This document shows positions 11,502-54,415 of a stretch of 64,000 bases of DNA, piece by piece. Source of the stretch: Naegleria gruberi (lineage: Eukaryota); NCBI GenBank assembly GCA_000004985.1, contig GG738853.1; one strand, given 5' to 3'. The notes beneath the pieces are model-generated. The model was not told where the DNA came from, searched no databases, and saw only the letters and a program-made list of their open reading frames with translations. The position numbers and the translations under genes were made by a program. Every line of letters begins with the position of its first letter. The first letter of the stretch is position 1.

Positions 11502-13058
11502 AAGTTCTTTCAAACATTCTTGAGCATCAACAACAAACTTTTCTTCAGTGTATCTATCAGCACTCTTTCTGGCATTTTCTTGAATTTCTTTCATTTCTTC
11601 AGTGTGATATCTTGACAAAATATCATTGATTGCTTGTGAGTATTCCTTTTCAGTTTCAGCCAAGAAACCAGTCTTGTTTGGAGTGACGATATCAGATTTT
11701 GGTCCTCCAGAATTGTGCGAAAGAGTTATCAAACCAGCAGCCATATATTCAACAACACAAATTCCAAAATGTTCATTCCACATTGAGTGAATTCCTATCA
11801 TAGATTCACCAAGCTTTTCTAATAATTGAGAGAATGGAGCGTTAGTGATAATTTCAAATTGGGATGATGGAATTTCCATATCTTGTGCAAGTTTTTTAAG
11901 ATAGTCAACTCTTGCACTATCTTCTTCATTTCTACAACCTCCCAACAGAATAAGTTTGACATCCTTTTTAGAAATTCTTGTACTTCCTCCCAAATCATAT
12001 TCTTCATTTTTTAAGAATGAAGAGAATGCTCTAACTTGCAGAGCATGATCCTTTTCAGGTCTAAATTGACCAACGGACAAAATGTATGGCTTTCTTGTTT
12101 CATGAGCTAATGGAACAGTTGTTAAATGATCAACATTGCATGGAGGATAGACAATTTCAATATTCAAACGAGATTTTTTGATCTTTCTATTTCTTAACCA
12201 CCACAATGATTTAACATGTCCATGAGTCCAAGTGGAATTTACCATAACCATATCACAGAAGTATCCAGCAAAGAAGCCATAGAGAGCTGAGAAAATCTTG
12301 TAATAAGTCAATTTAAGACTTGTTTTTAAAGTACTGTTAGTAACACTGTCATCATTATTGTAAGCTGTCACTCTTTTAACAACTCTTTCCAACATATCAG
12401 TACTAATGGTTGGATAATGAGTATAAGATCCAACCTTACATCCAGCCAATTTAGCAACAAAGTAAGTAAATGGCAATCCATGAGTATCAATGAAAACATC
12501 AGGTGTATAGGTGCTAACAGCTTCCCATCCTAACATGATACTTGCCAAGCTTTGTCCAATAAGTGTTAATCTTGCTTTTGAAGCTGCTTCCAATAAATCT
12601 CTATTATATAAAAACACAACTTGAACAGGTCTATCCAATTCAATATTAAAAATCTTTTTAACCTTATCAGTAAGAATTTTTTCATATTGTTCTTCAGTGA
12701 TATTTTGAAAAGTTCCATTTTCATTAAGAGGTTTTCCAGAAAAGAGAACAACATGAACATCATCTCTCAATTGTTGAAGTGCTTTAATTATCCACCACAA
12801 AACACGTTCTCCTCCGGCACATCCTTCACTATATGGATGCATAAAAGCAACAACAGTTTCATCTTTTGGTGTTCGGAATTTACTTCTACAAGCCTTCTTT
12901 ATCGATGGGAAATAATTTACTCTGAGATAAATAATCACAAAAATTAAACTGATCACACTCAACACTGATTGATACCACATCAAATGAAACAGTGATGATT
13001 TTAAAATAAAATCAGGAATAATTCCCGATAGAAAAGTCTCTGGTGAAAAGAAGGTCAT
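11493..13058 (-). CDS. alg11: GDP-Man:Man3GlcNAc2-PP-dolichol alpha-1,2-mannosyltransferase (ALG11-like, GT4).
   Basis: There is an N-terminal TM helix, then HPYSEGCAGGERVLW and a C-terminal GT4 core (EHFGICVVEYMAAGLI). It overlaps the Kelch gene 3' end by 9 bp in convergent orientation. Confidence 0.75.
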   Translation of the reverse strand: MTFFSPETFLSGIIPDFILKSSLFHLMWYQSVLSVISLIFVIIYLRVNYFPSIKKACRSKFRTPKDETVVAFMHPYSEGCAGGERVLWWIIKALQQLRDDVHVVLFSGKPLNENGTFQNITEEQYEKILTDKVKKIFNIELDRPVQVVFLYNRDLLEAASKARLTLIGQSLASIMLGWEAVSTYTPDVFIDTHGLPFTYFVAKLAGCKVGSYTHYPTISTDMLERVVKRVTAYNNDDSVTNSTLKTSLKLTYYKIFSALYGFFAGYFCDMVMVNSTWTHGHVKSLWWLRNRKIKKSRLNIEIVYPPCNVDHLTTVPLAHETRKPYILSVGQFRPEKDHALQVRAFSSFLKNEEYDLGGSTRISKKDVKLILLGGCRNEEDSARVDYLKKLAQDMEIPSSQFEIITNAPFSQLLEKLGESMIGIHSMWNEHFGICVVEYMAAGLITLSHNSGGPKSDIVTPNKTGFLAETEKEYSQAINDILSRYHTEEMKEIQENARKSADRYTEEKFVVDAQECLKELLI

Positions 13059-13487
13059 TTTTTTTGATGTTTCTAATTAATTTAAGATTTGAAAATTTGG
13101 AGATGTATTTAACATAATTTTAGTGGCACGTGTTTGAATGAAAAACACGAATATCAAGATTTTTGTTTTGTTACAGGTGTTTGTGTTGTTGTTCCTTGTT
13201 ATTCCTCACGATGAGGAGATTATTAGCCAATCTTTATGGCTTGACCTTTATCGAACTTTTTTATCAAAAACTCTCAAATTCCAATCAGACCACTCTAGAC
13301 GCTCTACTGCACTCAATCTTAACCCAAATCCTTCAAATGTTGCACAGAGTCCTTAATTGCCTAAAAGTGTGGTCTCAGGTCGTTATTGATACAAGATACT
13401 TTGATAAACTTACACCTTTTATAATCGAAACCTTTCTCTCACCGTTCAACAGACACCAAGTTTAAATTTCGAAGGTTATTATCGTAA

Positions 13488-13559
13488 GGGACCATGGTCT
13501 AGTGGTATGATTCTCGCTTTGGGTGCGAGAGGCCGTGGGTTCGATTCCCACTGGTCCCC
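13488..13559 (+). tRNA. tRNA-Pro (UGG).
   Basis: The 72-nt cloverleaf is GGGACCATGGTCTAGTGGTATGATTCTCGCTTTGGGTGCGAGAGGCCGTGGGTTCGATTCCCACTGGTCCCC. The anticodon loop is TTTGGGT and A and B boxes are present. Confidence 0.85.
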
Positions 13560-13716
13560 TTTCCTTTCATGTAACTTTGAAAATTCCAACTTTAATATGT
13601 TTTGCTTATTGGAATTTTGTATAAAATTCGTGTTATTGCCTTAGTTCAATAAATTTAGTTTAAGGTTTAAATTGAGTTTTTTGGGTACCTCCAATAAAAT
13701 TAATTGTAAAACAATC

Positions 13717-13782
13717 CTCCCATGCCGGGAATTGACCCTCCTGGGTGAAAGCCAGGTATCCTAGCCATTGGACTACACGGGA
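13717..13782 (-). pseudogene. Degenerate tRNA-Glu (UUC) copy, 66 nt, with a 6-nt deletion that removes the 5' half of the T-stem and the B box.
   Basis: It is identical to the intact tRNA-Glu at 31313..31384 except that CCGGGT is missing (GAGGGTCAATTCC versus GAGGTCCGGGTTCAATTCC). The 5' flanks are also conserved. Confidence 0.6.
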
Positions 13783-14211
13783 TCTCATTCACAATGAGAA
13801 TATTCTCATTTTATAGATAAATGCTGAAAACTCTCAGATTTTAGAAAACCTCGAGTTCCCCTCTCAAAATAAGACTCAAAAGCCTTAAAAGAATGGTTAT
13901 ACGATCTTGGTACCTGGTAATAAGTACCATCACTGATATTTATCGAAGTGATGAAAATTTGGGTGTACCCAAACGCCTTAATAAAACAAAAGACTACAGC
14001 ACCACAGGTTCCCAAGTTGTCTCCAACCTCAGTACTGATGTGGCTCGACGATGCTTAACTTCTCAAATCGGACGGGATGAGGTGCATTCATCGTGATATG
14101 GCCGTAGCCATTGATAATATCAAAATCTTAATACTGAATAAGAAACCGAATCTTGTACATTAAACATTAATAAGAATAGCGAACTGTTAATTTACGTAAG
14201 CAAAAAAGGAG

Positions 14212-14277
14212 TAGCAAATCTAGGTTTCGATCCTAGGACCTATGGGTTATGAGCCCATCGCGCTGCGCCAATTTGCT
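14212..14277 (-). pseudogene. tRNA-Met (CAU)-like sequence of 66 nt with a collapsed D-arm. It has initiator-like features (A1:U72, GATCGAAAC T-loop).
   Basis: The reverse complement is AGCAAATTGGCGCAGCGCGATGGGCTCATAACCCATAGGTCCTAGGATCGAAACCTAGATTTGCTA. The anticodon stem-loop and T-arm are intact, but only 6 nt lie between the 5' D-stem and the anticodon stem, about 7 nt too few. Confidence 0.45.
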
Positions 14278-14860
14278 TTTCATTTACCTATTAAAATTTA
14301 GTCCAACTTTCAAGCGGTTTAACATGGCCTTTGAGACTTGATCATATTTCTGATTTGTAAGTGTTTCTATATCCATAGTTATCCAATTACATTATTCAAC
14401 ATTCTATCAATCCTCTCTAATCCTAAACAATCACTTCGAATATTAGTTGACTGCCAAGCTCGAATTTGATTCTTAGTCAACAAAATCAATTTGACCGGTT
14501 TAAAAAGTATTTTCCGGTCCTCTCTTCCACCAATCACTCTCTTTACTGACTCGAAAGACGACGTACCTCACAGTTCATACAGTCAAAGACTGTAGCGGGA
14601 CAGTCGCCATATTCCTGGCAGGCTTCCCGTCTAGTAAAATTAATTGAAAAGTTTCAAATTGTTGTAAATCACAACTACACTGTAAATTTGATTCTTTATT
14701 GTTTTAAAGTTGTGCATTTGAAACTCGTTCTTTACAAAGAAGGAATTCTAATATTAAGGTAAAACTAACTTTAAATAATATTTTCAAATACTATACACTT
14801 AATTAAATTTGAAAATATTATTTATATAAATAATAATGAAAAAAAATAAACAATTGGTAT

Positions 14861-16240
14861 TTACATATTTACAGTTTGTTGATTGACTCGTTGTTGAGCT
14901 TGAATTCTTGTTGAGAAACCGTTGAGTCCTCTCTGTTCAACTCTAAATGAAGTGGCACTACAAGCTAATTTCACACTTTCAAATACTTGTTCGCTTGAAA
15001 ATGAAAGTTTGTTGGAAGTATTTGCTGTTGAATTCCTCACAAGTAACTCAGCAACAAAACAAGATAGAAAAGTATCACCAGCTCCAGTTTCGTCCAAAAC
15101 TCTAACTGGTTTGTAGGAAGAGAAATATTTAACAATTGGTGTTGAACTATTTGATCTCAACCTAGGCAAAGACAATTGAATATTTTCTCCTTCGCAAGCA
15201 CAAACACAACCAGATGATCCCATTGTAACTGTTACAATTGGAAATCCATAATTCTTTTGAATATGGTATGCACATTCTTCAGGTGTCATTTCAGAGCTAT
15301 TTGGAATACATTTCTTTGCTTCATCATGATCTAATTTAATGACTGAAATAATCTTACTCAAAGTTTCCAACACTTCCTCTAAATATTCGATAGTATTATG
15401 AGAAACTTGACCACTTTCTGTATCAATTTTTCTCAAATAACCCTGAATATCAGTACAAACTAGAAAATCTGACTGAATTTCTTTAAAAACCTGATTTGTA
15501 AAAGCATTCACAAAGTGATGATCAAACTCTGCAGCTACTGGAACAAAGAGCAATGCTCTAACTTGATGTAATTCTCTAATCATTAAATTAATTGATTCAT
15601 CTTGTTTGAAAATACTTCCTCTATCTCTACAATTCAAGCTTCTACTGTTAGAAGCATTTTCAAGTGAATCAAATGGAGGATATAATAATTCATATTGAGT
15701 TAATTTAGATGATTGATCTTCCTCAACAAGAATCATGTCAAACATTTTCATTCTTTTTAAATGTTTGGCTTCTGACAGATCAGGTTGGAATGTCTTGTGA
15801 AATTGCTTATTAATTATTGGAGATTCACATGCAACCATTGTTATTGAATCATCTTCATTAGCAGCATGTTCCAACCCATTGAAAAACTGACTCAAAATCA
15901 TCACATCATGTTTTCCAATTTTAGTCAATATTTTAGGATGAATTTTAAAATGTTGATTATTAGAATAATACATTTGATTATCAATATTCTTCATATAATG
16001 TTGAAAGGCTAAACATCCAAACATGACTGATCCTCCGAGTGATTTGTTGACTATTTTTCTATATCCTTGATAATGAATTGAATTAGCATCTTCATCGGAA
16101 TTTAATTCTTGTTCAATGTGATGATGTTGTGATGATGAAATACCATTCGGAGTATGTTGGTGATGATCTTTCTCAAAGGTAATAATTGTATCTTGAGTGA
16201 TATTACCAACGAATATTACTTGTTTTTCATTCAACATCAT
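14861..16240 (-). CDS. pfkB-family (ribokinase-like) carbohydrate or nucleoside kinase with a long N-terminal/insert region.
   Basis: The C-terminal region ...VLDETGAGDTFLSCFVAELL carries the pfkB DTxGAGD anion-hole motif, with an upstream GG dipeptide region. It is a single long ORF. Confidence 0.5.
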   Translation of the reverse strand: MMLNEKQVIFVGNITQDTIITFEKDHHQHTPNGISSSQHHHIEQELNSDEDANSIHYQGYRKIVNKSLGGSVMFGCLAFQHYMKNIDNQMYYSNNQHFKIHPKILTKIGKHDVMILSQFFNGLEHAANEDDSITMVACESPIINKQFHKTFQPDLSEAKHLKRMKMFDMILVEEDQSSKLTQYELLYPPFDSLENASNSRSLNCRDRGSIFKQDESINLMIRELHQVRALLFVPVAAEFDHHFVNAFTNQVFKEIQSDFLVCTDIQGYLRKIDTESGQVSHNTIEYLEEVLETLSKIISVIKLDHDEAKKCIPNSSEMTPEECAYHIQKNYGFPIVTVTMGSSGCVCACEGENIQLSLPRLRSNSSTPIVKYFSSYKPVRVLDETGAGDTFLSCFVAELLVRNSTANTSNKLSFSSEQVFESVKLACSATSFRVEQRGLNGFSTRIQAQQRVNQQTVNM

Positions 16241-16731: not shown

Positions 16732-17565
16732 ATGAAATTTATTAAAAAAATGTCTGAAAATAATCTGTTGATTGTTCACGCCTTGAGGAAGACTAATAGC
16801 AGCAGCGATAATGCTACTGTAGAATATACACAAGAGGAAATTTTAGAACAAGTGATCGGGATTGATAATTTTGTGAAGGAGAATAATATTAAATTAAAAT
16901 TACAAACTAAATATTATAGTGCTGATATTAATATACATTTTTGGAATGTTGAAAAGGAGAGTGTTTGTCCTTTTGATTGGAAAAGTTCTTCCGTGCAAGT
17001 GATTGTTGGTATTCCTGATTATCAATCGGATATGGTTTTGGAAGCAATTTTAAAATATAGTAATGAGATTGAATCTGGTTTTATTTATCATTTAGAACAA
17101 CCAAATGAAAAACTGGCAAAAGAATCACAATCTTGGTGTGTTGATAACAATTTTGAAATGGTTGTGAAAAATTTTACTGAAGAAAAAACTGATAATGGAA
17201 TTATTGAGGAGAAACAAGGTATTAAACGATTGATGGAAGCTATTGAATGTACAATGTGGCCAGCAATGAATAGAATTGATCCAAAGGCAGTAAAGGCTCA
17301 ACAAGAATCTTCCAAGAAAGAAGAGAAGCCAATCGAACAAATCAAAGATGCTAAAGAATTATTAGGCAGTGAAGCTGAAATTGTGGAAGAGGATGAAAAA
17401 GAAATTGAATCATTCGAACGTCTAATGCATGAAATTCTCAATATTAGAAAGGATAGTAAAACTATTGGAGATGATGAAAGAAAGAAGAGAGCTGAATTGG
17501 CCACCCTCAAACTCTTGTCAATGATGGGAGATGAAGATGAGTATTTATCTGATGAGGATTATTAA
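16732..17565 (+). CDS. Alpha- and gamma-adaptin-binding protein p34 (AAGAB) homolog.
   Basis: KYYSADINIHFWNV matches the AAGAB core NKYYSADINLCVV. The acidic C-terminus FERLMHEIL...DEDEYLSDEDY resembles the AAGAB tail. Confidence 0.5.
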   Translation: MKFIKKMSENNLLIVHALRKTNSSSDNATVEYTQEEILEQVIGIDNFVKENNIKLKLQTKYYSADINIHFWNVEKESVCPFDWKSSSVQVIVGIPDYQSDMVLEAILKYSNEIESGFIYHLEQPNEKLAKESQSWCVDNNFEMVVKNFTEEKTDNGIIEEKQGIKRLMEAIECTMWPAMNRIDPKAVKAQQESSKKEEKPIEQIKDAKELLGSEAEIVEEDEKEIESFERLMHEILNIRKDSKTIGDDERKKRAELATLKLLSMMGDEDEYLSDEDY

Positions 17566-26127: not shown

Positions 26128-26352
26128 TATTGATTTAATGAGTTTGATTATACTTTGAAAATCCAGTGGAAGTTTCCGTTCAAGAAGATCAAAATTCTTG
26201 ACAGACCTTGTAGCTATTTCAAGTCGAATGTGATCGATACAGATGATAATTATCAATTTTATTAAGGAATGGTTGACAACTCTTTAACAGAAAATAAATA
26301 ATTAGTAAGCTAGGACCTTAGTGCTTCATATTTTTTGATCATCTTTCAAGAA

Positions 26353-26423
26353 GCATTAGTAGTGTAACGGTATCATACCAGCCTTCCAAGCTGGTGACCC
26401 GGGTTCGACTCCCGGCTAATGCA
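26353..26423 (+). tRNA. tRNA-Gly (UCC).
   Basis: The sequence is GCATTAGTAGTGTAACGGTATCATACCAGCCTTCCAAGCTGGTGACCCGGGTTCGACTCCCGGCTAATGCA, 71 nt, with anticodon loop CTTCCAA. Confidence 0.85.
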
Positions 26424-27026
26424 ATTCAATTTTACAGTTGATAGAAATAAGTTTTTCTCTTTTTTCATTAATTAAAACCTTAAACAGCAGTTCAAAATGA
26501 AATTAATAAAGTGCAAATTGAATAAATTGCTATTATTTGATCCTTTGAAAATTGTAACTGCTCAGAACCACTTGTAGATTCCAAAGTTCATTAAATAATT
26601 AACAGAATTGACTTGTTGAGATTTCTTGTTCTCTAACCAACAAGAAATCTCAGCTACTTAATCTTCACAAAAGAAGAATAAGAAGAATAAGAAAATTATG
26701 AAGGAATTTGTGAGAAAAAACATGTAAACAAATGGTTTCATCTATTGACGAGGATGAGTATGAACAATATTCAATCAATTCTAAATTCTAAATATTTAAT
26801 AAATTGTTTAACGAAATGGATTGATTGTCTGTTGATGGTTTTTGGAGTGCATGAGAGGATTTACACCAGCTGAGCTCTATCTATCTCTTGGATTATTAAG
26901 GCGAGGAATCTACTAACCAATACCCTCAGAAATGGTTTCCAACAACTTGTAAAAAGCACTAATCAATCTTCAAGAAACGGTGCCATTCTTAAAGACATGT
27001 TGATATCAGCTAAACTAAAATTGAAT

Positions 27027-27097
27027 TGCATTAGCCGGGAGTCGAACCCGGGTCACCAGCTTGGAAGGCTGGTATGATACCGTTACACTACTAATGC
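27027..27097 (-). tRNA. tRNA-Gly (UCC), an inverted duplicate of 26353..26423.
   Basis: It is the exact reverse complement of the first copy, and the flanks are also mirrored. Confidence 0.85.
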
Positions 27098-27737
27098 TTC
27101 TTGTAAGATGATCAAAAAATATGAACCACCAAGTGGTAGCCATGATAATTTTCATGGAAACAATTATATTTTTTGGTAATTAATTCGATATCCAATACTT
27201 GAACATAGAAATGCGTATGGAACTAATAATTATAATTAATGTTTCAATAAAATATACTTGCTTCCGTATAACATGTCAGATTCCTTTGTTGTCACAGATC
27301 TAACATGTAAAGAAAGATACAAGCAGAGCTGAAAATTACCTTTTTTGTTGTTCTTTCAAAGCGTACAAATGAAATTGAAACTTCATGGGTGAAAAAATTT
27401 TACTGTTTTGCATTCATTCTTTGTTCTAACAGTAAAGATTCCAATAGGTAAATTAACATGTCAATATTGTTGCAATGTGTTGTTATCACCTGGCATAACA
27501 ATATCTGATATTAAATCCATTCTTATGACCATGTTCGTGATGTAAGCTTCAAATGTCATTGTACAAAATTAATCTTGTCATTCCAATTCCAACCATTGAA
27601 CCATATCATGTAAGTTTTAGTTGATTCACAACCTCCCAAAACGAAAGAAATCTCCAAATAATGTTCCATCGCCATTGACAAAAATAGAGCTATTTCGAAG
27701 AGCTTGAAAGATTACTCTCATACAGTTTCGAATAGGA

Positions 27738-31312: not shown

Positions 31313-31384
31313 CTCCCATGCCGGGAATTGAACCCGGACCTCCTGGGTGAAAGCCAGGTATCCTAGCCATTGGACTACACGGGA
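31313..31384 (-). tRNA. tRNA-Glu (UUC).
   Basis: The reverse complement is TCCCGTGTAGTCCAATGGCTAGGATACCTGGCTTTCACCCAGGAGGTCCGGGTTCAATTCCCGGCATGGGAG, 72 nt, with anticodon loop CTTTCAC. It sits 90 bp downstream of the K/C-rich gene. Confidence 0.85.
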
Positions 31385-31837
31385 TCTCATTCATGATGAA
31401 AACATTCCCATTTCATAGATAAAACACACAAATTGACCATAATCTGTTGGCACTTGCAGTGAACAACCACTCCCAGTTGCCATCAAGACTGGTTGTAGTT
31501 TCCACTTGATTTTAAATCTTGTTCTCTTAGTATTTACGTTGTACATCGGAGCCTTCATACACGCTCTTTATGTTATTTTAATGAAGGATTAAATAAATTG
31601 ATTTTATTAACATCTAGACTTGTCCCTAGTTGTAAAATGATATACGAGTTAGGCATAGGGCAAGGTTGTGAACATTGTTATGTCCGTGATGATTCGGTCC
31701 TTTTTATTAGATCCGTCATCAAAATAACCATGTCAATAACCATCTTTTTGACATGTTCAAGTTGTTGGTTGGTTACAAACACACACTCATTTAGTCAGTT
31801 TTCAGCAATCAATGAAAAACTATCATCTTTAAAAAAA

Positions 31838-46687: not shown

Positions 46688-46880
46688 TAGAAATATTAAT
46701 AGCAAAATGACGTTTGTTGCCAACTCACACAATGTAAATATCTCGAAAACATCTTCCTAATAATATATCATTGCCCAACAATGCATATTGTTCAATACAG
46801 CAAATAACTGTAATTGTCTTGCAAAACACGTATTGGTGATTTCATCATTCAATTTGAAAATAAAAATAGCAAACAAAAAA

Positions 46881-48453
46881 ATGAAAATATTTAAACTTTT
46901 AATTGTATTATTATTTTTGATTTCATCAATAGTACTTGTTGCTAATTGTTCAGATGCTACTTCAACTGCTGGTAGTGAAAATATAGAAATTAAAAGTAAA
47001 TTAAATGATCAACAAAATACATATACACAAGATTCATTATTGGGAAATGGTATTTTAACTGGAATTAAAAAGGATGGAACAATTGATAGTATTATTGCTC
47101 AATATAAACAATTAGATAATGAATATATTAAATCTAATAATATTGATAATGGTGATGAAAAGAAGGAAGATATTACAATTGAAAATCCATCAGTAACAAC
47201 TCCTACAACACCTACTACTACACCAACAACAACAACACCACCTATTGATATTACAACACCATCATTACCTAGTACTGTTAATAATCCAATTGATGAAAAA
47301 CCAAAAGATATTGAATTGCCACCATTGGAAGAAAAGAAATCATCAACTGAATCATCAAAACCAACAGTTGATACTCCAACAACAACAACAAAAACAACAA
47401 CAACTACTACTACAACTCCATTACAAGATAAACCTGGAAAGGAAGAAGAATCAGCTGCTGAACAAAAATTGAGAGAAGAAATTAGTAAACTTAAGGCTAA
47501 ACTTGAAGAAATTCAAAAGAAGGAACAAGAAAAGTCAACACCAACAGCACCAATTGAAAAACAAAATAAGCCTATTACAATTGAAAATCCATCACCAGTA
47601 ATAACTCCTACAACAACAACAACTCAACCAAAGGCTGAAAAATCAATTGAAACTACTAAACCATCTACAACTACTACTACTACACCTTCTAAACCATCTA
47701 CAACTACAACTACAACTATTCCATCTAAAATTGATAATAAGAGTAGTACTCCAAGTAAACAGACAACATCATCTACTACTAGTAAAACATCGACAACAAC
47801 AACAACTCCTAATACTACTACTAACAAATCAACAACAACAACTACACCAACAAACAAACAATCATCATCTACTACTAGTAGCAGTTCATCATCAACAAGT
47901 AAATCATCTTCCAAATCAAAGAATAAGTCTACAACAAGTAGTACAACAAGTAAGAATAAGACTAAACCATCAAGTACTTCTCCAACTACCAACAACAAAC
48001 AATCATCATCTGCTAGTACTACTTCTACAACTCCGACAACAAAAACTCCAACAACAACAACAACTCCAAGTAACAAACAATCATACTACCACTGGTTCTA
48101 CTACTACTACTTCCAATACTAATAAACCAAGTAGTACTACTTCTACAACAACAACTCCAAGTAACAAACAACCAATTCAACCTAATAAGAATACAGTTGT
48201 ACGTCCAACACTTAAAGAAGAAGAAGAAAAGAATAATGGAATATCACAAGTATTTATATTTGGATTTGGTATAATTCTATTTTTAGTAATTATTGCAATT
48301 TTCTTTTTATTTATGAGAAAGAGAAAACCAACATTAAAATATGAACCAGTTTCACAATATGAAAATGATTCAATTCAAAATAATGATAATTCCATTGTTG
48401 AATTAGATGATAAACATAAAGTAATTAATGAACCTGTTGATTTGGAAATTTAA
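46881..48453 (+). CDS. Mucin-like Thr/Ser/Pro-rich type I membrane glycoprotein with a signal peptide, a PTT(T)n repeat ectodomain, a TM and a short cytoplasmic tail. It has an apparent frameshift near 48075-48095.
   Basis: ORF 46788..48122 carries the signal peptide MKIFKLLIVLLFLISSIVLVANC and the Thr-rich repeats. ORF 47647..48453 carries more Thr-rich repeats plus the TM (IFIFGFGIILFLVIIAIFFLF) and tail. The two are offset by one base at ...AACAAACAATCATACTACCACTGG.... Confidence 0.45.
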
Positions 48454-49319: not shown

Positions 49320-50462
49320 TTATTTATTTAAATTAATATATTTAACATTTAATTCAATACCATTATTACTTTGATTTCTAAAAATGGAATTAAAATTATC
49401 ATTTTTTAAATTATTTGAATAATCAAATGCAATTCCCATACTTTCAGTACTAAAAGTATAACCAAATTCTAATTGATCATAATCAGTAACTTTACATGAT
49501 AAACATCCAATTTTTCTTTCATTTGTAAAATTAATTAAATTACCATAAATAGAAAATAAAGCTTGTTCCATTGGAATTTCAAATATTTTATCAACTAGAT
49601 AATTTGACATTTGATTTAACATGATATCTTCACCAATTCCACTAAAATTACTTGCAATTTGTATAAAATTATCATTATCACTATCTTGTACATATTTAGT
49701 ATCTGAATAACATCCACTTCCATATATAGAAGCTTCACCAATTCTACCTGAATATTTTAATGATATTCCACCACTACTAACACCTGATGATAATATTCCA
49801 TTATAATATATTATACATCCAACTGTATCATATNNNNNNNNNNNNNNNNNNNNNNNNNNNNNNNNNNNNNNNNNNNNNNNNNNATTATTTAAATTATTTA
49901 TATTATTATTACCATTTATATTATTATTATTAAAATTATAAATAGATGAAAAACATAAACATGCATCACATTCAACTAAACCATTTCTATTTAAATTACT
50001 ACCATATCCAGCATTTGTAAATGGTGAATTTTCTAAAATAGAAATAGCATATGAACATGCATTTAAACATTTTTTTATTTTTTCATTTTCATCATTTTTA
50101 TTTATAAATTTACTATTATTTAAATTATTTAAATTATTAAAATATTGATTAATAGTTTGTTGTATAGATTGTTTCATTAAATTTCTATATAAATTATTAT
50201 TATTAATAGAATGATATCCTGCTCCACAATGAACTGCAATAAAATATACATCATCTTCATCTTCATCATCTTTTAAATCATTATTTAAATCATTATTTAA
50301 ATTATTATATTCTATTATTTCATTATTATTATTATTATCTTGTTGTTGTTGAATAGATAAAGATGATGATGATGAATTATTCCGATCAACATGTTGATGA
50401 TGATTAACTTGTTCACTCATTTTTTTAAAGTTTATAATAGAAAAAAACAAATTGTAACACAC
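49320..50462 (-). CDS. Threonine aspartase 1 (Taspase-1, asparaginase-2 / Ntn-hydrolase family), interrupted by a 50-N scaffold gap.
   Basis: FIAVHCGAGYHS, LENSPFTNAGYGSNLNRNGLVECDA and DTVGCIIY...SSGGISLKYSGRIGEASIYGSGCY match the Taspase-1 core, including the Thr nucleophile of DTVG. Confidence 0.65.
   Translation of the reverse strand: MCYNLFFSIINFKKMSEQVNHHQHVDRNNSSSSSLSIQQQQDNNNNNEIIEYNNLNNDLNNDLKDDEDEDDVYFIAVHCGAGYHSINNNNLYRNLMKQSIQQTINQYFNNLNNLNNSKFINKNDENEKIKKCLNACSYAISILENSPFTNAGYGSNLNRNGLVECDACLCFSSIYNFNNNNINGNNNINNLNNXXXXXXXXXXXXXXXXXYDTVGCIIYYNGILSSGVSSGGISLKYSGRIGEASIYGSGCYSDTKYVQDSDNDNFIQIASNFSGIGEDIMLNQMSNYLVDKIFEIPMEQALFSIYGNLINFTNERKIGCLSCKVTDYDQLEFGYTFSTESMGIAFDYSNNLKNDNFNSIFRNQSNNGIELNVKYINLNK
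49834..49883. other. Assembly gap of 50 N.
   Basis: A run of n characters sits inside the Taspase-1 coding region. Confidence 0.99.
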
Positions 50463-51836: not shown

Positions 51837-53308
51837 TTTTTTTTAATTTGATAGAGAAATGTGTGGATTGTATGAGTAGAAGAAATTGTACAAAGAATAA
51901 TAAGAACATGGAACAATTACATGTTCAGTGTTCAACATATCCTCAAAAGCATTTAAAGGAAAACAGCTGTTTTGTGACATCAATTGCTGGTGGTTTCTTG
52001 CATGGATTCGTATATAAGTGGCTCTTATGAGTCCTCAATCCATGATTCTGCTTATTGTTCCAACTGAACCAAAGAATAAGGATGTTAATCATTCAGTTGT
52101 AAATTACTGAAAAGTTTTCTGAATTGGAAGAACATTAAAAGGTCAAACATTTAGAAGATCAAATTCAAATTGAGAAAAAGATAAGAACAAGAAGGATAGA
52201 CAAGAGGAAGCCAGACATAAGAAGGATGTAGAAGACAGAAAGAAGAAGGAAGAGGAAGATCGTTTGAGAAAAGCCCAATTAGAAGAGGATGATTAGAAGA
52301 TGAAAGAAAGAGAAAAGCCTAAATTGAAGAAGAACGTAGGAGAAAGGCAGATTTGGAAGAGGAAAACAAGAAGAGCAACCTGCTCAAGAGGAAGAGGAAA
52401 AGAAAAAGGTTAAATGAGTGAGGTCATGAAAGATCTCCTTTCCAAGTCTGCAACAGAAGTACTCGTTATCAATCATTTGAAGGAATTAACGTCGATTACA
52501 AGGCCTCATTCATCATCATTTTTTGGAAAATACTTTAATAGCTTGGTTTTGTAAACTTTGGAGAGGATCGCAATTTTGGCGTCGATTTGATGTAAATGGA
52601 ACCACAAGGATTGAGCACAAATATTCGTTATGGTAAACAAAATCATTATGTTATCAAACAAACTAGCCGTTCCATTTTAAAATGTAGATTTCGTCTAGAT
52701 GGAACCACCAAAGGTGAGTCAACACGTGCCGATTTCACAACATATTACAATCGTTCCAAGCTGTTGGCCAATCGACAAATTAGCACATAATTTCATAATA
52801 GCGCAATATGATTATTTCACCTACCATTTGGACTACTCATAATTTATCCTTATAATAGAGTTACTTATCTTAACCACTTTGATTTTGTATTCTACTCTTC
52901 TGTTAAAAATATTTGATGATCCTTGGATTCTGTTACTGGTAGTACACTTACACTAAATACTTACGTTGTCTGTCCTGCATGTCTGTTCTGCGACCATTCT
53001 ATGAAGTTTCAAAATGAATTGTGTAAATAATATGCCAATGTCAGAAAAGCAAAGCAACAATTCGATATGTAAAGTTTAAAACAAAATTGAACGCATATGT
53101 ATTCAGAGATATGGTATCTTTAACAATCTTCAGTAGTTATTTTGTTTTACACACTTACACAATTTTGTAGATTCAGTAATGCATTTCTACTCACAAATGA
53201 GAACTGTACTGATTAACGAAGCTGACCCTCCAAACCAATAAAGAAAAATTGAATATTTTGTTTATTTTATTCCGAAAGTTCTAAGTCAATGGTTTTCCAT
53301 TTGGCCAA

Positions 53309-54415
53309 TCAGGCATCTTCATCTTCTTTATATTGAAAGTCTTTGTTGTGATCTTTTAATTGGTTCATTTCACTCAAGTATTTTGTTCCTTCATCACCAA
53401 TATAGTTGTTGTTAATATAAAGATACATTATTTCTTTCAATTCACTTATGTATTTAACTCCTTCATCTCTAATCTTATTGTAGGAAATATCAAGATGGGT
53501 CAATTGTTTCAATCCACTCAAATATTTAATTCCTTCATCACCAATGTCATTACAAGAAATATCAAGATCCATTAATTGTTTCAATTCACATAAATATTTA
53601 GCTCCCTCATCACCAATTTGATTGTTAGAAATATTAAGAAGTATTAAATGTTTTAATTCACTTAAATATTTTGCTCCTTCATTTCCAATTTGATTGTTAT
53701 TAATATAAAGATCAGTTAATTGTTTCAATTCTCCAATATATTTAGATCCTTCATCACCTATACGATTATCTTGAATATTAAGATAGGTCAATTGTTTTAA
53801 TTCACTTAAATATTTTGCTCCTTCATCATCAATATTATTTTTATCAATAATAAGAATGGTCAATTGTTTCAATTCACTTATATATTTTGATCCTTTAGCA
53901 CCAATATTATTTTTATCAATAATAAGAAAAGTTAATTGTTTCAATTCACTTAAATATTTAGCTCCATATTCAGAAATACCATTATTACGAATATCAAGAG
54001 TGGTCAATTGTTTCAATTCACTTATAAATCTAACACCCTCATCACCTATATAACTATCATAAATATGAAGTTTTTTTAATTGTTTCAATTCACTTAAATG
54101 ATTTAATGCTTCTCCTTCTTTAATTCTAATTTTAAGTTTTGTTAATGATTTCATCATTTTTAATTTTTTAACAGTATTAATAGTGCTGGCAGTAGTACTA
54201 ACATGAAGATTACAACATGTTGATAAAATAACATTCAACCACTGTTTAGATACCAATGTACAATTCAAGATAATAAAATTAAAATCATCAAAGAAGGAAA
54301 TTATTTCATATATTATATCATTATGAAATTTATAATCATTGTGTGACAAGTTCTCCATCCTTGTTTGAACCATGTTAGTTGAATGTTGTGTACACAATGT
54401 TGGGAGTTTTTCCAT
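53309..54415 (-). CDS. F-box / leucine-rich-repeat protein (RNI-like LRRs).
   Basis: An N-terminal F-box-like segment (IIYEIISFFDDFNFIILNCTLVSKQWLNVIL) is followed by about 12 tandem 24-aa repeats of the form ELKQLTxLxIxxNxIGDEGAKYLS. The repeats are also highly similar at the DNA level. Confidence 0.6.
   Translation of the reverse strand: MEKLPTLCTQHSTNMVQTRMENLSHNDYKFHNDIIYEIISFFDDFNFIILNCTLVSKQWLNVILSTCCNLHVSTTASTINTVKKLKMMKSLTKLKIRIKEGEALNHLSELKQLKKLHIYDSYIGDEGVRFISELKQLTTLDIRNNGISEYGAKYLSELKQLTFLIIDKNNIGAKGSKYISELKQLTILIIDKNNIDDEGAKYLSELKQLTYLNIQDNRIGDEGSKYIGELKQLTDLYINNNQIGNEGAKYLSELKHLILLNISNNQIGDEGAKYLCELKQLMDLDISCNDIGDEGIKYLSGLKQLTHLDISYNKIRDEGVKYISELKEIMYLYINNNYIGDEGTKYLSEMNQLKDHNKDFQYKEDEDA

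Follow-up and report, generated by a model that had tools for sequence, protein, structure and literature searches.

A small RNA polymerase III gene cluster with two probable young tRNA pseudogenes between ALG11 and a PfkB-like gene of Naegleria gruberi

The closest known arrangement of 5S rRNA and tRNA genes to the one described here is the array unit of Entamoeba; according to a published account (PMC2652664), these units are repeated in long tandem arrays whose spacers consist of short tandem repeats. In Naegleria gruberi, 279 putative 5S genes without linkage to the rDNA plasmid have been reported (PMC3369914), and 924 tRNA genes and pseudogenes were reported in a study that also associated tRNA genes with rearrangements (PMC2888827). 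We analyzed the ALG11/PfkB-like intergenic region of N. gruberi nuclear DNA (13059..14860, 1.8 kb) within a stretch of 64,000 nucleotides, hereafter the window. The region is best explained as, and very probably represents, a small RNA polymerase III gene cluster with two young tRNA pseudogenes. It shares with the Entamoeba unit the occurrence of tRNA and 5S genes together in a short repeated unit of a protist genome, but differs in that the block is known in no more than two versions; neither tandem repetition nor a second copy of the block was found within the 64-kb window. With the tRNA clusters and pseudogenes of other eukaryotes (Bermudez-Santana et al. 2010, PMC2888827), the locus has in common a spacing of less than 1 kb, a poorly conserved gene order, rapid turnover, decay by small deletions and an association with rearrangement breakpoints, whereas its two pseudogenes would be unusually fresh for their kind, each having a single 6-nt lesion and a known intact sister. 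Given the published numbers of 5S genes and of tRNA genes and pseudogenes, the cluster can be understood as ordinary gene-family turnover; it is real but ordinary. Its value lies mainly in annotation, with the organism assignment corrected, one 5S gene added and two tRNA calls flagged as pseudogenes.

Table 1. Coordinates of the genes, flanks, terminators and duplicated segments discussed in the text (window positions)
Feature	Position	Strand	Evidence or remark
ALG11 mannosyltransferase ORF, 521 aa	11493..13058	-	100% identical to N. gruberi NCBI protein
tRNA-Pro(UGG), intact	13488..13559	+	ARAGORN; Rfam tRNA model 62.4 bits, full length
Block common to window and L025, minimum extent	13509..14637		BLASTN, MAFFT
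tRNA-Glu(UUC), probable pseudogene, 66 nt	13717..13782	-	Rfam 38.9 bits; no ARAGORN call
5' flank common to both Glu copies, 39 nt	13783..13821	-	matches 31385..31423
T-run TTTGTTTTATT, likely Pol III terminator	13980..13990	-	directly 3' of 5S
5S rRNA gene, full length, canonical	13991..14109	-	Rfam RF00001 105.4 bits, E = 4e-22
T6 run, likely Pol III terminator	14202..14207	-	5 nt downstream of initiator copy; + strand gcAAAAAAgg
Initiator tRNA-Met(CAU), probable pseudogene, 66 nt	14212..14277	-	Rfam 53.3 bits; ARAGORN calls Met
Spacer without annotation	14278..14637		~360 nt; part of block common to window and L025
PfkB-like ORF, 459 aa	14861..16240	-	100% identical to NAEGRDRAFT_57217
Intact tRNA-Glu(UUC), older paralog of 13717 copy	31313..31384	-	ARAGORN; Rfam 67 bits

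Gene content and base composition

ARAGORN and Rfam/Infernal searches identified four RNA polymerase III genes in 13059..14860 (Table 1), and no Rfam family other than the tRNAs and 5S was found either in 13000..15500 at E < 10 or in the whole window at E < 1. The two flanking ORFs, ALG11 and PfkB-like, each match a protein of N. gruberi with 100% identity, in disagreement with the dictyostelid host assumed by the first-pass annotation. The tRNA-Pro(UGG) gene had been described as intact, and the ARAGORN match and its Rfam score of 62.4 bits bear this out; like the 5S rRNA gene it is intact, and both are presumably functional.

The 5S gene covers positions 1-120 of its Rfam model (RF00001), scoring 105.4 bits compared to a gathering score of 38, and has a TATA-like element (TATTAAG) at about -24. 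It is 100% identical to the 5S gene of an unrelated locus (L026) whose flanks differ, and 92% identical to that of a related Naegleria (L027). Between the N. gruberi 5S copies and the latter, 38 of 39 helix pairs are kept and four helix pairs carry compensatory double changes; T-runs likewise lie 3' of the 5S genes at both of these loci. A scan of bacterial and archaeal genomes with the 5S core gave no matches. The gene thus resembles the dispersed N. gruberi 5S genes (PMC3369914) in its full length with an internal control region, its upstream TATA-like element, its T-run terminator and its identity to the copy at the unrelated locus, but unlike them it is solitary rather than tandem and has tRNA genes on both sides. 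A candidate degenerate second 5S copy near 14600, suggested by GCCATAT...CCCGTC motifs in 14280..14860, was rejected because local alignment scored it no higher than expected from shuffled sequences.

The DNA from 13800 to 14650 had been described as GC-shifted and without a convincing ORF. A modest shift is present, and no ORF in 13059..14860 exceeds 69 aa, but a full-length 5S gene sits there. The RNA genes have a GC content of 0.50-0.60 and the spacers of 0.24-0.37, and the non-genic DNA of the block has a GC content of 0.323 compared to about 0.29 for the non-ORF DNA of the window as a whole. Since the 5S and tRNA genes are GC-rich, most of the shift is contributed by the RNA genes themselves, and the only GC-rich patch without explanation is 14582..14637 (56 nt, GC 0.54). 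The spacer 14278..14637 has no Rfam matches at E < 10. A structured RNA in 14500..14645 was considered and rejected (fold z-scores of only -1.4 and -2.3), as was a protein-coding remnant in the spacers, the ORFs of which have no Pfam match. The 5S gene, which lies midway in the DNA described as GC-shifted, was overlooked at the first reading.

Lesions in the two 66-nt tRNA genes

Alignment of the Glu copy at 13717 to the intact gene at 31313..31384 and to the intact gene of a metagenome contig described below (L025:209-280) revealed a 6-nt gap (ACCCGG, + strand, after 13735) and an additional substitution at 13736. With the missing segment, both the variable loop and the 5' T-stem strand are gone. 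Thus the first-pass annotation was correct about the loss of 6 nt but not about the destruction of the B box, which differs from the intact sequence at one position (GGGTCAATTCC versus GGTTCAATTCC). The Rfam score is 38.9 bits at 13717 compared to 67 bits for both intact genes, a drop of 28 bits, and the covariance-model alignment contains a gap and non-canonical pairs. In the predicted fold the T-stem is down to 3 bp and all other stems are perfectly paired, and the copy does not have the five-bp T-stem, 7-nt T-loop and variable loop of a functional tRNA. Judging from this alignment and predicted fold, a transcript of the copy cannot be expected to form a normal T-arm or variable loop. A TTTT run is located 7 nt downstream.

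The shared 5' flank that had been noticed between the copies at 13717 and 31313 was confirmed: 33 of 39 nt are identical, with ATGAGA/TCTCAT palindromes inside, and this common flank supports the proposed duplication linking the two genes. In comparison with the 6 differences in 39 nt of flank, the gene body has at most one substitution in 65 nt relative to the 31313 paralog (P = 2.5e-4 under equal rates). Because the body is far less substituted than the flank, we conclude that the copy was kept up as a gene until not long before it suffered the deletion.

The second short gene had been described as a Met(CAU)-like copy missing about 7 nt of the D-arm. The D-arm is indeed short, but the loss amounts to 6 nt of the D-loop (CGCTTC, + strand, after 14260), including G18/G19, and the gene is an initiator. 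Eukaryotic initiator tRNA-Met is distinguished by an A1:U72 pair, an anticodon stem with three G:C pairs, and the T-loop residues A54 and A60. The copy has A1:U72, a GGG/CCC anticodon stem and an AUCGAAA T-loop, so that its identity is apparent from the sequence AGCAAAU...AUGGGCUCAUAACCCAU...AUCGAAA...AUUUGCUA. Its D-arm sequence, TGGCGCAG-CGC-GATGGG, corresponds to TGGCGCAG-(A/C)GGAAGCG(C/T)-GATGGG in canonical initiators. Its Rfam score is 53.3 bits, compared to 64 bits for the intact initiator gene of L025 (a drop of 11 bits); six D-loop positions are absent from the covariance-model alignment, and the predicted fold has a D-arm of 3 bp with a 3-nt loop, the remaining stems being perfectly paired. 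The G18/G19 contribution of the D-loop to the tRNA elbow is missing. A metagenome scan for Naegleria-type initiator tRNAs, in which any D-loop gap of 1-12 nt was allowed, gave 21 canonical eukaryotic initiators, none of them from Naegleria. The D-loop segment is 9 or 11 nt long in all 21, compared to 3 nt here, and (A/C)GGAAG or an equivalent is present in every one of them as well as in the intact sister gene of L025. A short GCG direct repeat flanks the segment deleted from the window copy, which suggests replication slippage.

The Rfam scores of the three tRNA loci (62.4 bits for Pro, 53.3 for the initiator and 38.9 for Glu) are therefore reduced in the two short copies, yet both exceed the tRNA gathering score of 29 bits, and ARAGORN also calls the Met copy. 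The deletion junctions of the 66-nt genes read CCAGGAGGGTCAATT and GGCGCAGCGCGATGGG. Both deletions are of exactly 6 nt and fall in the two tRNA genes on either side of the 5S gene, a coincidence that counts against the present reading, although indel placement shows no enrichment in genes (see below).

A second version of the block

A search of a protein collection with a spurious ORF overlapping the 5S gene found a second version of the block, and three contigs with relatives of this ORF were fetched. The second version, L025, is a 1354-nt contig of ENA metagenome ERZ929261, in which the 3' part of tRNA-Pro(+), tRNA-Glu(-), 5S(-), initiator tRNA(-) and a spacer of ~360 nt follow one another in the same order as in the window. 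Positions 1-1153 of L025 align to window 13509-14650 by BLASTN, and where alignable the contig is about 99% identical to window 13509..14637, with ~7 isolated substitutions (about 0.7%) and 8 indels in a MAFFT alignment. Because L025 begins inside tRNA-Pro, the left end of the block is not delimited; the portion of tRNA-Pro(UGG) that is present is identical to the window. Both tRNA genes that are short in the window are intact in L025 (Glu, 72 nt and 67 bits; initiator, normal length and 64 bits), and the differences inside the two short genes are limited to the 6-nt gaps and one base. In the 5S gene of L025, which scores 92.3 bits, 2 nt are inserted and one base is substituted. Within the spacer, 14553..14581 is rearranged in L025, and the GC-rich end, 14582..14633, is identical in the two versions. 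Since the ~99% identical contig carries intact tRNA genes, the two deletions represent the derived state, arose recently and are confined to the window copy; the lesions are found in the window copies and are absent from the L025 sister and the 31313 paralog. These findings support the earlier suggestion that tRNA copies at this locus were inactivated by small deletions.

L025 and the window are homologous up to about 14633-14637, where the match ends sharply. To the right of this break, the AT-rich 3' region of the PfkB-like gene follows in the window, whereas L025 contains unrelated DNA, including ...CCCGTCTAAATCATTAAGTG..., followed by a tRNA-Glu(+) gene that forms 100-nt inverted arms with the other Glu gene of the contig. 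The sharp end and the different right flanks favor a paralogous segmental duplicate. Alternatively, L025 could represent this locus as it exists in a different strain or haplotype, in which case the deletions would be strain polymorphisms and no recent 1.1-kb duplication would be involved. We regard this as possible but somewhat doubtful: the substitution level of about 0.7% is close to the 0.41% that separates the window from another contig of ERZ929261 (L001) over the Kelch/ALG11 region (99.59% identical), and strain NEG-M is heterozygous by earlier report, but the abrupt stop at about 14637, the replacement of the PfkB-like 3' region by unrelated DNA with a tRNA-Glu(+) gene, and a 40-nt internal duplication carried by L025 argue for a paralog. 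The pseudogene reading stands whether L025 is a paralog or an allele or strain variant.

The deletions could also be artefacts of sequencing, cloning or assembly, such as Sanger compressions or deletion of hairpin DNA in E. coli, the locus being intact in reality. Such an origin would account for the position of both deletions in GC-rich hairpin arms, in a window that is a draft with a 50-N gap, and for the intact state of both genes in the ~99% identical block of a strain that is ~99.6% identical elsewhere. Nevertheless, we consider it improbable, because six other indels and ~7 substitutions also separate the window from L025, more than two errors in a single underlying sequence would produce, so that the two are distinct sequences; moreover, the change in the Glu copy is complex, combining a deletion with a substitution, and the right flanks are wholly different beyond 14637. 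No independent assembly representing the window copy came up in exact-protein look-ups.

Decay of the tRNA copies and the setting of the cluster

The likeliest course of events for the two probable pseudogenes is that a single microdeletion of 6 nt, within an arm that forms a hairpin, disabled each copy. For the initiator, the deletion would have arisen by replication slippage across the GCG repeat, leaving a copy without the D-loop G18/G19 needed for the tRNA elbow. With A and B boxes and T-run terminators nearly intact, the short copies may still be transcribed, and their transcripts would be expected to misfold and be degraded. The block is at least 1.13 kb long, and its ~99% identical second version would stem from a recent segmental duplication or else from the corresponding locus of a different strain or haplotype; a further, older duplicate of the tRNA-Glu unit lies at 31313. 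If this is correct, the locus provides a clean example of tRNA gene death, in which one microdeletion in a hairpin arm occurs in an otherwise perfect gene whose intact sister is still recognizable. Comparison of the window with L025 did not reveal an enrichment of indels in genes (of the 8 indels, 3 or more would fall in RNA genes with P = 0.39, and 2 or more in the two tRNAs with P = 0.27), a pattern that fits random decay, with nothing pointing to targeting.

The first-pass annotation had raised the possibility of a decayed retroelement of the TRE/DGLT type, or another mobile element, inserted beside tRNA genes. The existence of the block in at least two near-identical versions, its sharp right boundary and its location at a synteny breakpoint relative to other Naegleria speak for such an insertion, but it is highly unlikely in view of the remaining evidence. 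The host is not a dictyostelid, and with two ordinary N. gruberi nuclear genes as flanks the dictyostelid retroelement framing has no basis. The longest ORF in 13059..14860 is at most 69 aa, without a Pfam match below E = 0.04, and the ORF list and Pfam contain no coding remnants of a reverse transcriptase, endonuclease or integrase in this interval. Terminal direct and inverted repeats were searched for and none were found, and the 5S and tRNA genes account for the excess of GC. A scan for the 35-nt core of the GC-rich patch found a single occurrence in the 64-kb window and none in viral contigs. The resemblance to Dictyostelium TRE5, TRE3 and DGLT-A loci is therefore limited to closeness to tRNA genes; the heterolobosean host and the lack of coding remnants and repeats set this locus apart.

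It is just as unlikely that the 66-nt copies are functional, transcribed tRNA-like RNAs, acting as arm-reduced tRNAs, decoys or precursors of regulatory fragments. In favor of this, pairing is perfect in every stem that remains, the A and B boxes are nearly intact, T-run terminators are present, and both copies exceed the Rfam gathering score. However, this near-identity to the parent genes is also the expectation for a very young pseudogene, the short forms are private to one copy whose sister is canonical, and all 21 initiator matches, each from a non-Naegleria eukaryote, have a full D-loop. To our knowledge, cytosolic tRNAs universally require G18/G19 and the T-stem. The predicted folds do resemble the D-arm- or T-arm-reduced cloverleaves of nematode and mite mitochondria, but those tRNAs are organellar, conserved across species and served by adapted translation factors, unlike the nuclear, single-copy lesions found here in genes that have canonical sisters. 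There is accordingly only a very slight chance that the 66-nt genes are alive with a role of their own, or that a hairpin-directed 6-nt microdeletion recurrently silences surplus tRNA genes beside 5S.

The cluster of RNA polymerase III genes with two probable young pseudogenes has no counterpart beside ALG11 in the relatives that were compared: neither tRNA nor 5S genes lie next to ALG11 in L003 (a relative with an ALG11 identity of 74%) or in N. fowleri (L002), and no tRNA/5S cluster lies downstream of the N. fowleri PfkB-like gene (L028, L029). In L003, the gene upstream of ALG11 is the counterpart of window 17044..17541 on the opposite strand, so that gene order is rearranged. The presence of the RNA polymerase III block where gene order differs fits the reported link of tRNA genes with rearrangements (PMC2888827).

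Two versions of the Pol III block

In the sister copy of the Pol III block carried by L025, a metagenome contig from a near-identical Naegleria strain, the loop C region of the 5S gene (L025:470-590) carries an insertion of 2 nt plus a single substitution, and the gene scores 92.3 bits versus 105.4 bits for its counterpart in the window. The damaged gene therefore differs between the two versions of the block. The GC-rich segment that closes the block is free of differences from L025 and can form two hairpins; searches of Rfam and Pfam with this segment returned zero matches.

Features in and around the Pol III block and at the tRNA-Gly pair
Feature	Position	Strand	Remarks
Two small ORFs that overlap (72 aa and 100 aa)	13138..13465	+	between ALG11 start and tRNA-Pro
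39-nt tRNA-Glu 5' flanks	13783..13821 and 31385..31423		immediately upstream of each copy
GC-rich segment, 52-56 nt	14582..14637		GC 0.54; extreme end of shared block
Region compared with L003:2-547	16732..17565	+	
tRNA-Gly(UCC) gene 1	26353..26423	+	identical to gene 2
tRNA-Gly(UCC) gene 2	27027..27097	-	identical to gene 1

Flanking sequences and gene order

Both tRNA-Glu flanks contain nested ATGAGA/TCTCAT palindromes (AATGAGAATATTCTCATT, then TCTCATTGTGAATGAGA). Because a third tRNA-Glu (L025:1256-1327) lacks the 39-nt flank, the shared sequence reflects common descent and not a universal promoter element. On the ALG11 side of the block, the DNA holding the two small ORFs has a GC content of 0.35-0.41 and neither ORF matched anything in Pfam; candidate readings of this stretch are a small gene missing from the annotation and a 5' UTR or promoter region. 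In L003, a contig from a Naegleria relative, the neighbor of ALG11 (L003:2-547) is a homologue of window positions 17044..17541 (46% amino acid identity) in reversed orientation, and thus the Pol III block, together with the PfkB-like gene, sits where gene order varies between species.

Inverted tRNA pairs and repetitive coding stretches

The tRNA-Gly(UCC) pair lies within inverted arms of 118 nt each (26317..26434 and 27016..27133), which are 97% complementary and separated by 581 nt. A comparable inverted pair, of tRNA-Glu genes, brackets the 5S gene in L025, and pairs of tRNA genes in inverted orientation may be common across the N. gruberi genome. Elsewhere in the window, at least nine tandem copies of a 72-nt unit (53278..54153; 66-76% identity) lie within an ORF (53309..54415, minus strand) that probably encodes a repeat-containing protein. 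A long, low-complexity repetitive coding stretch rich in ACN/CCN (Thr/Pro-type; 47170..48175) falls inside ORFs 46788..48122 and 47647..48453. Finally, a run of 50 N at 49834..49883 marks an assembly gap, and the window is therefore draft assembly.
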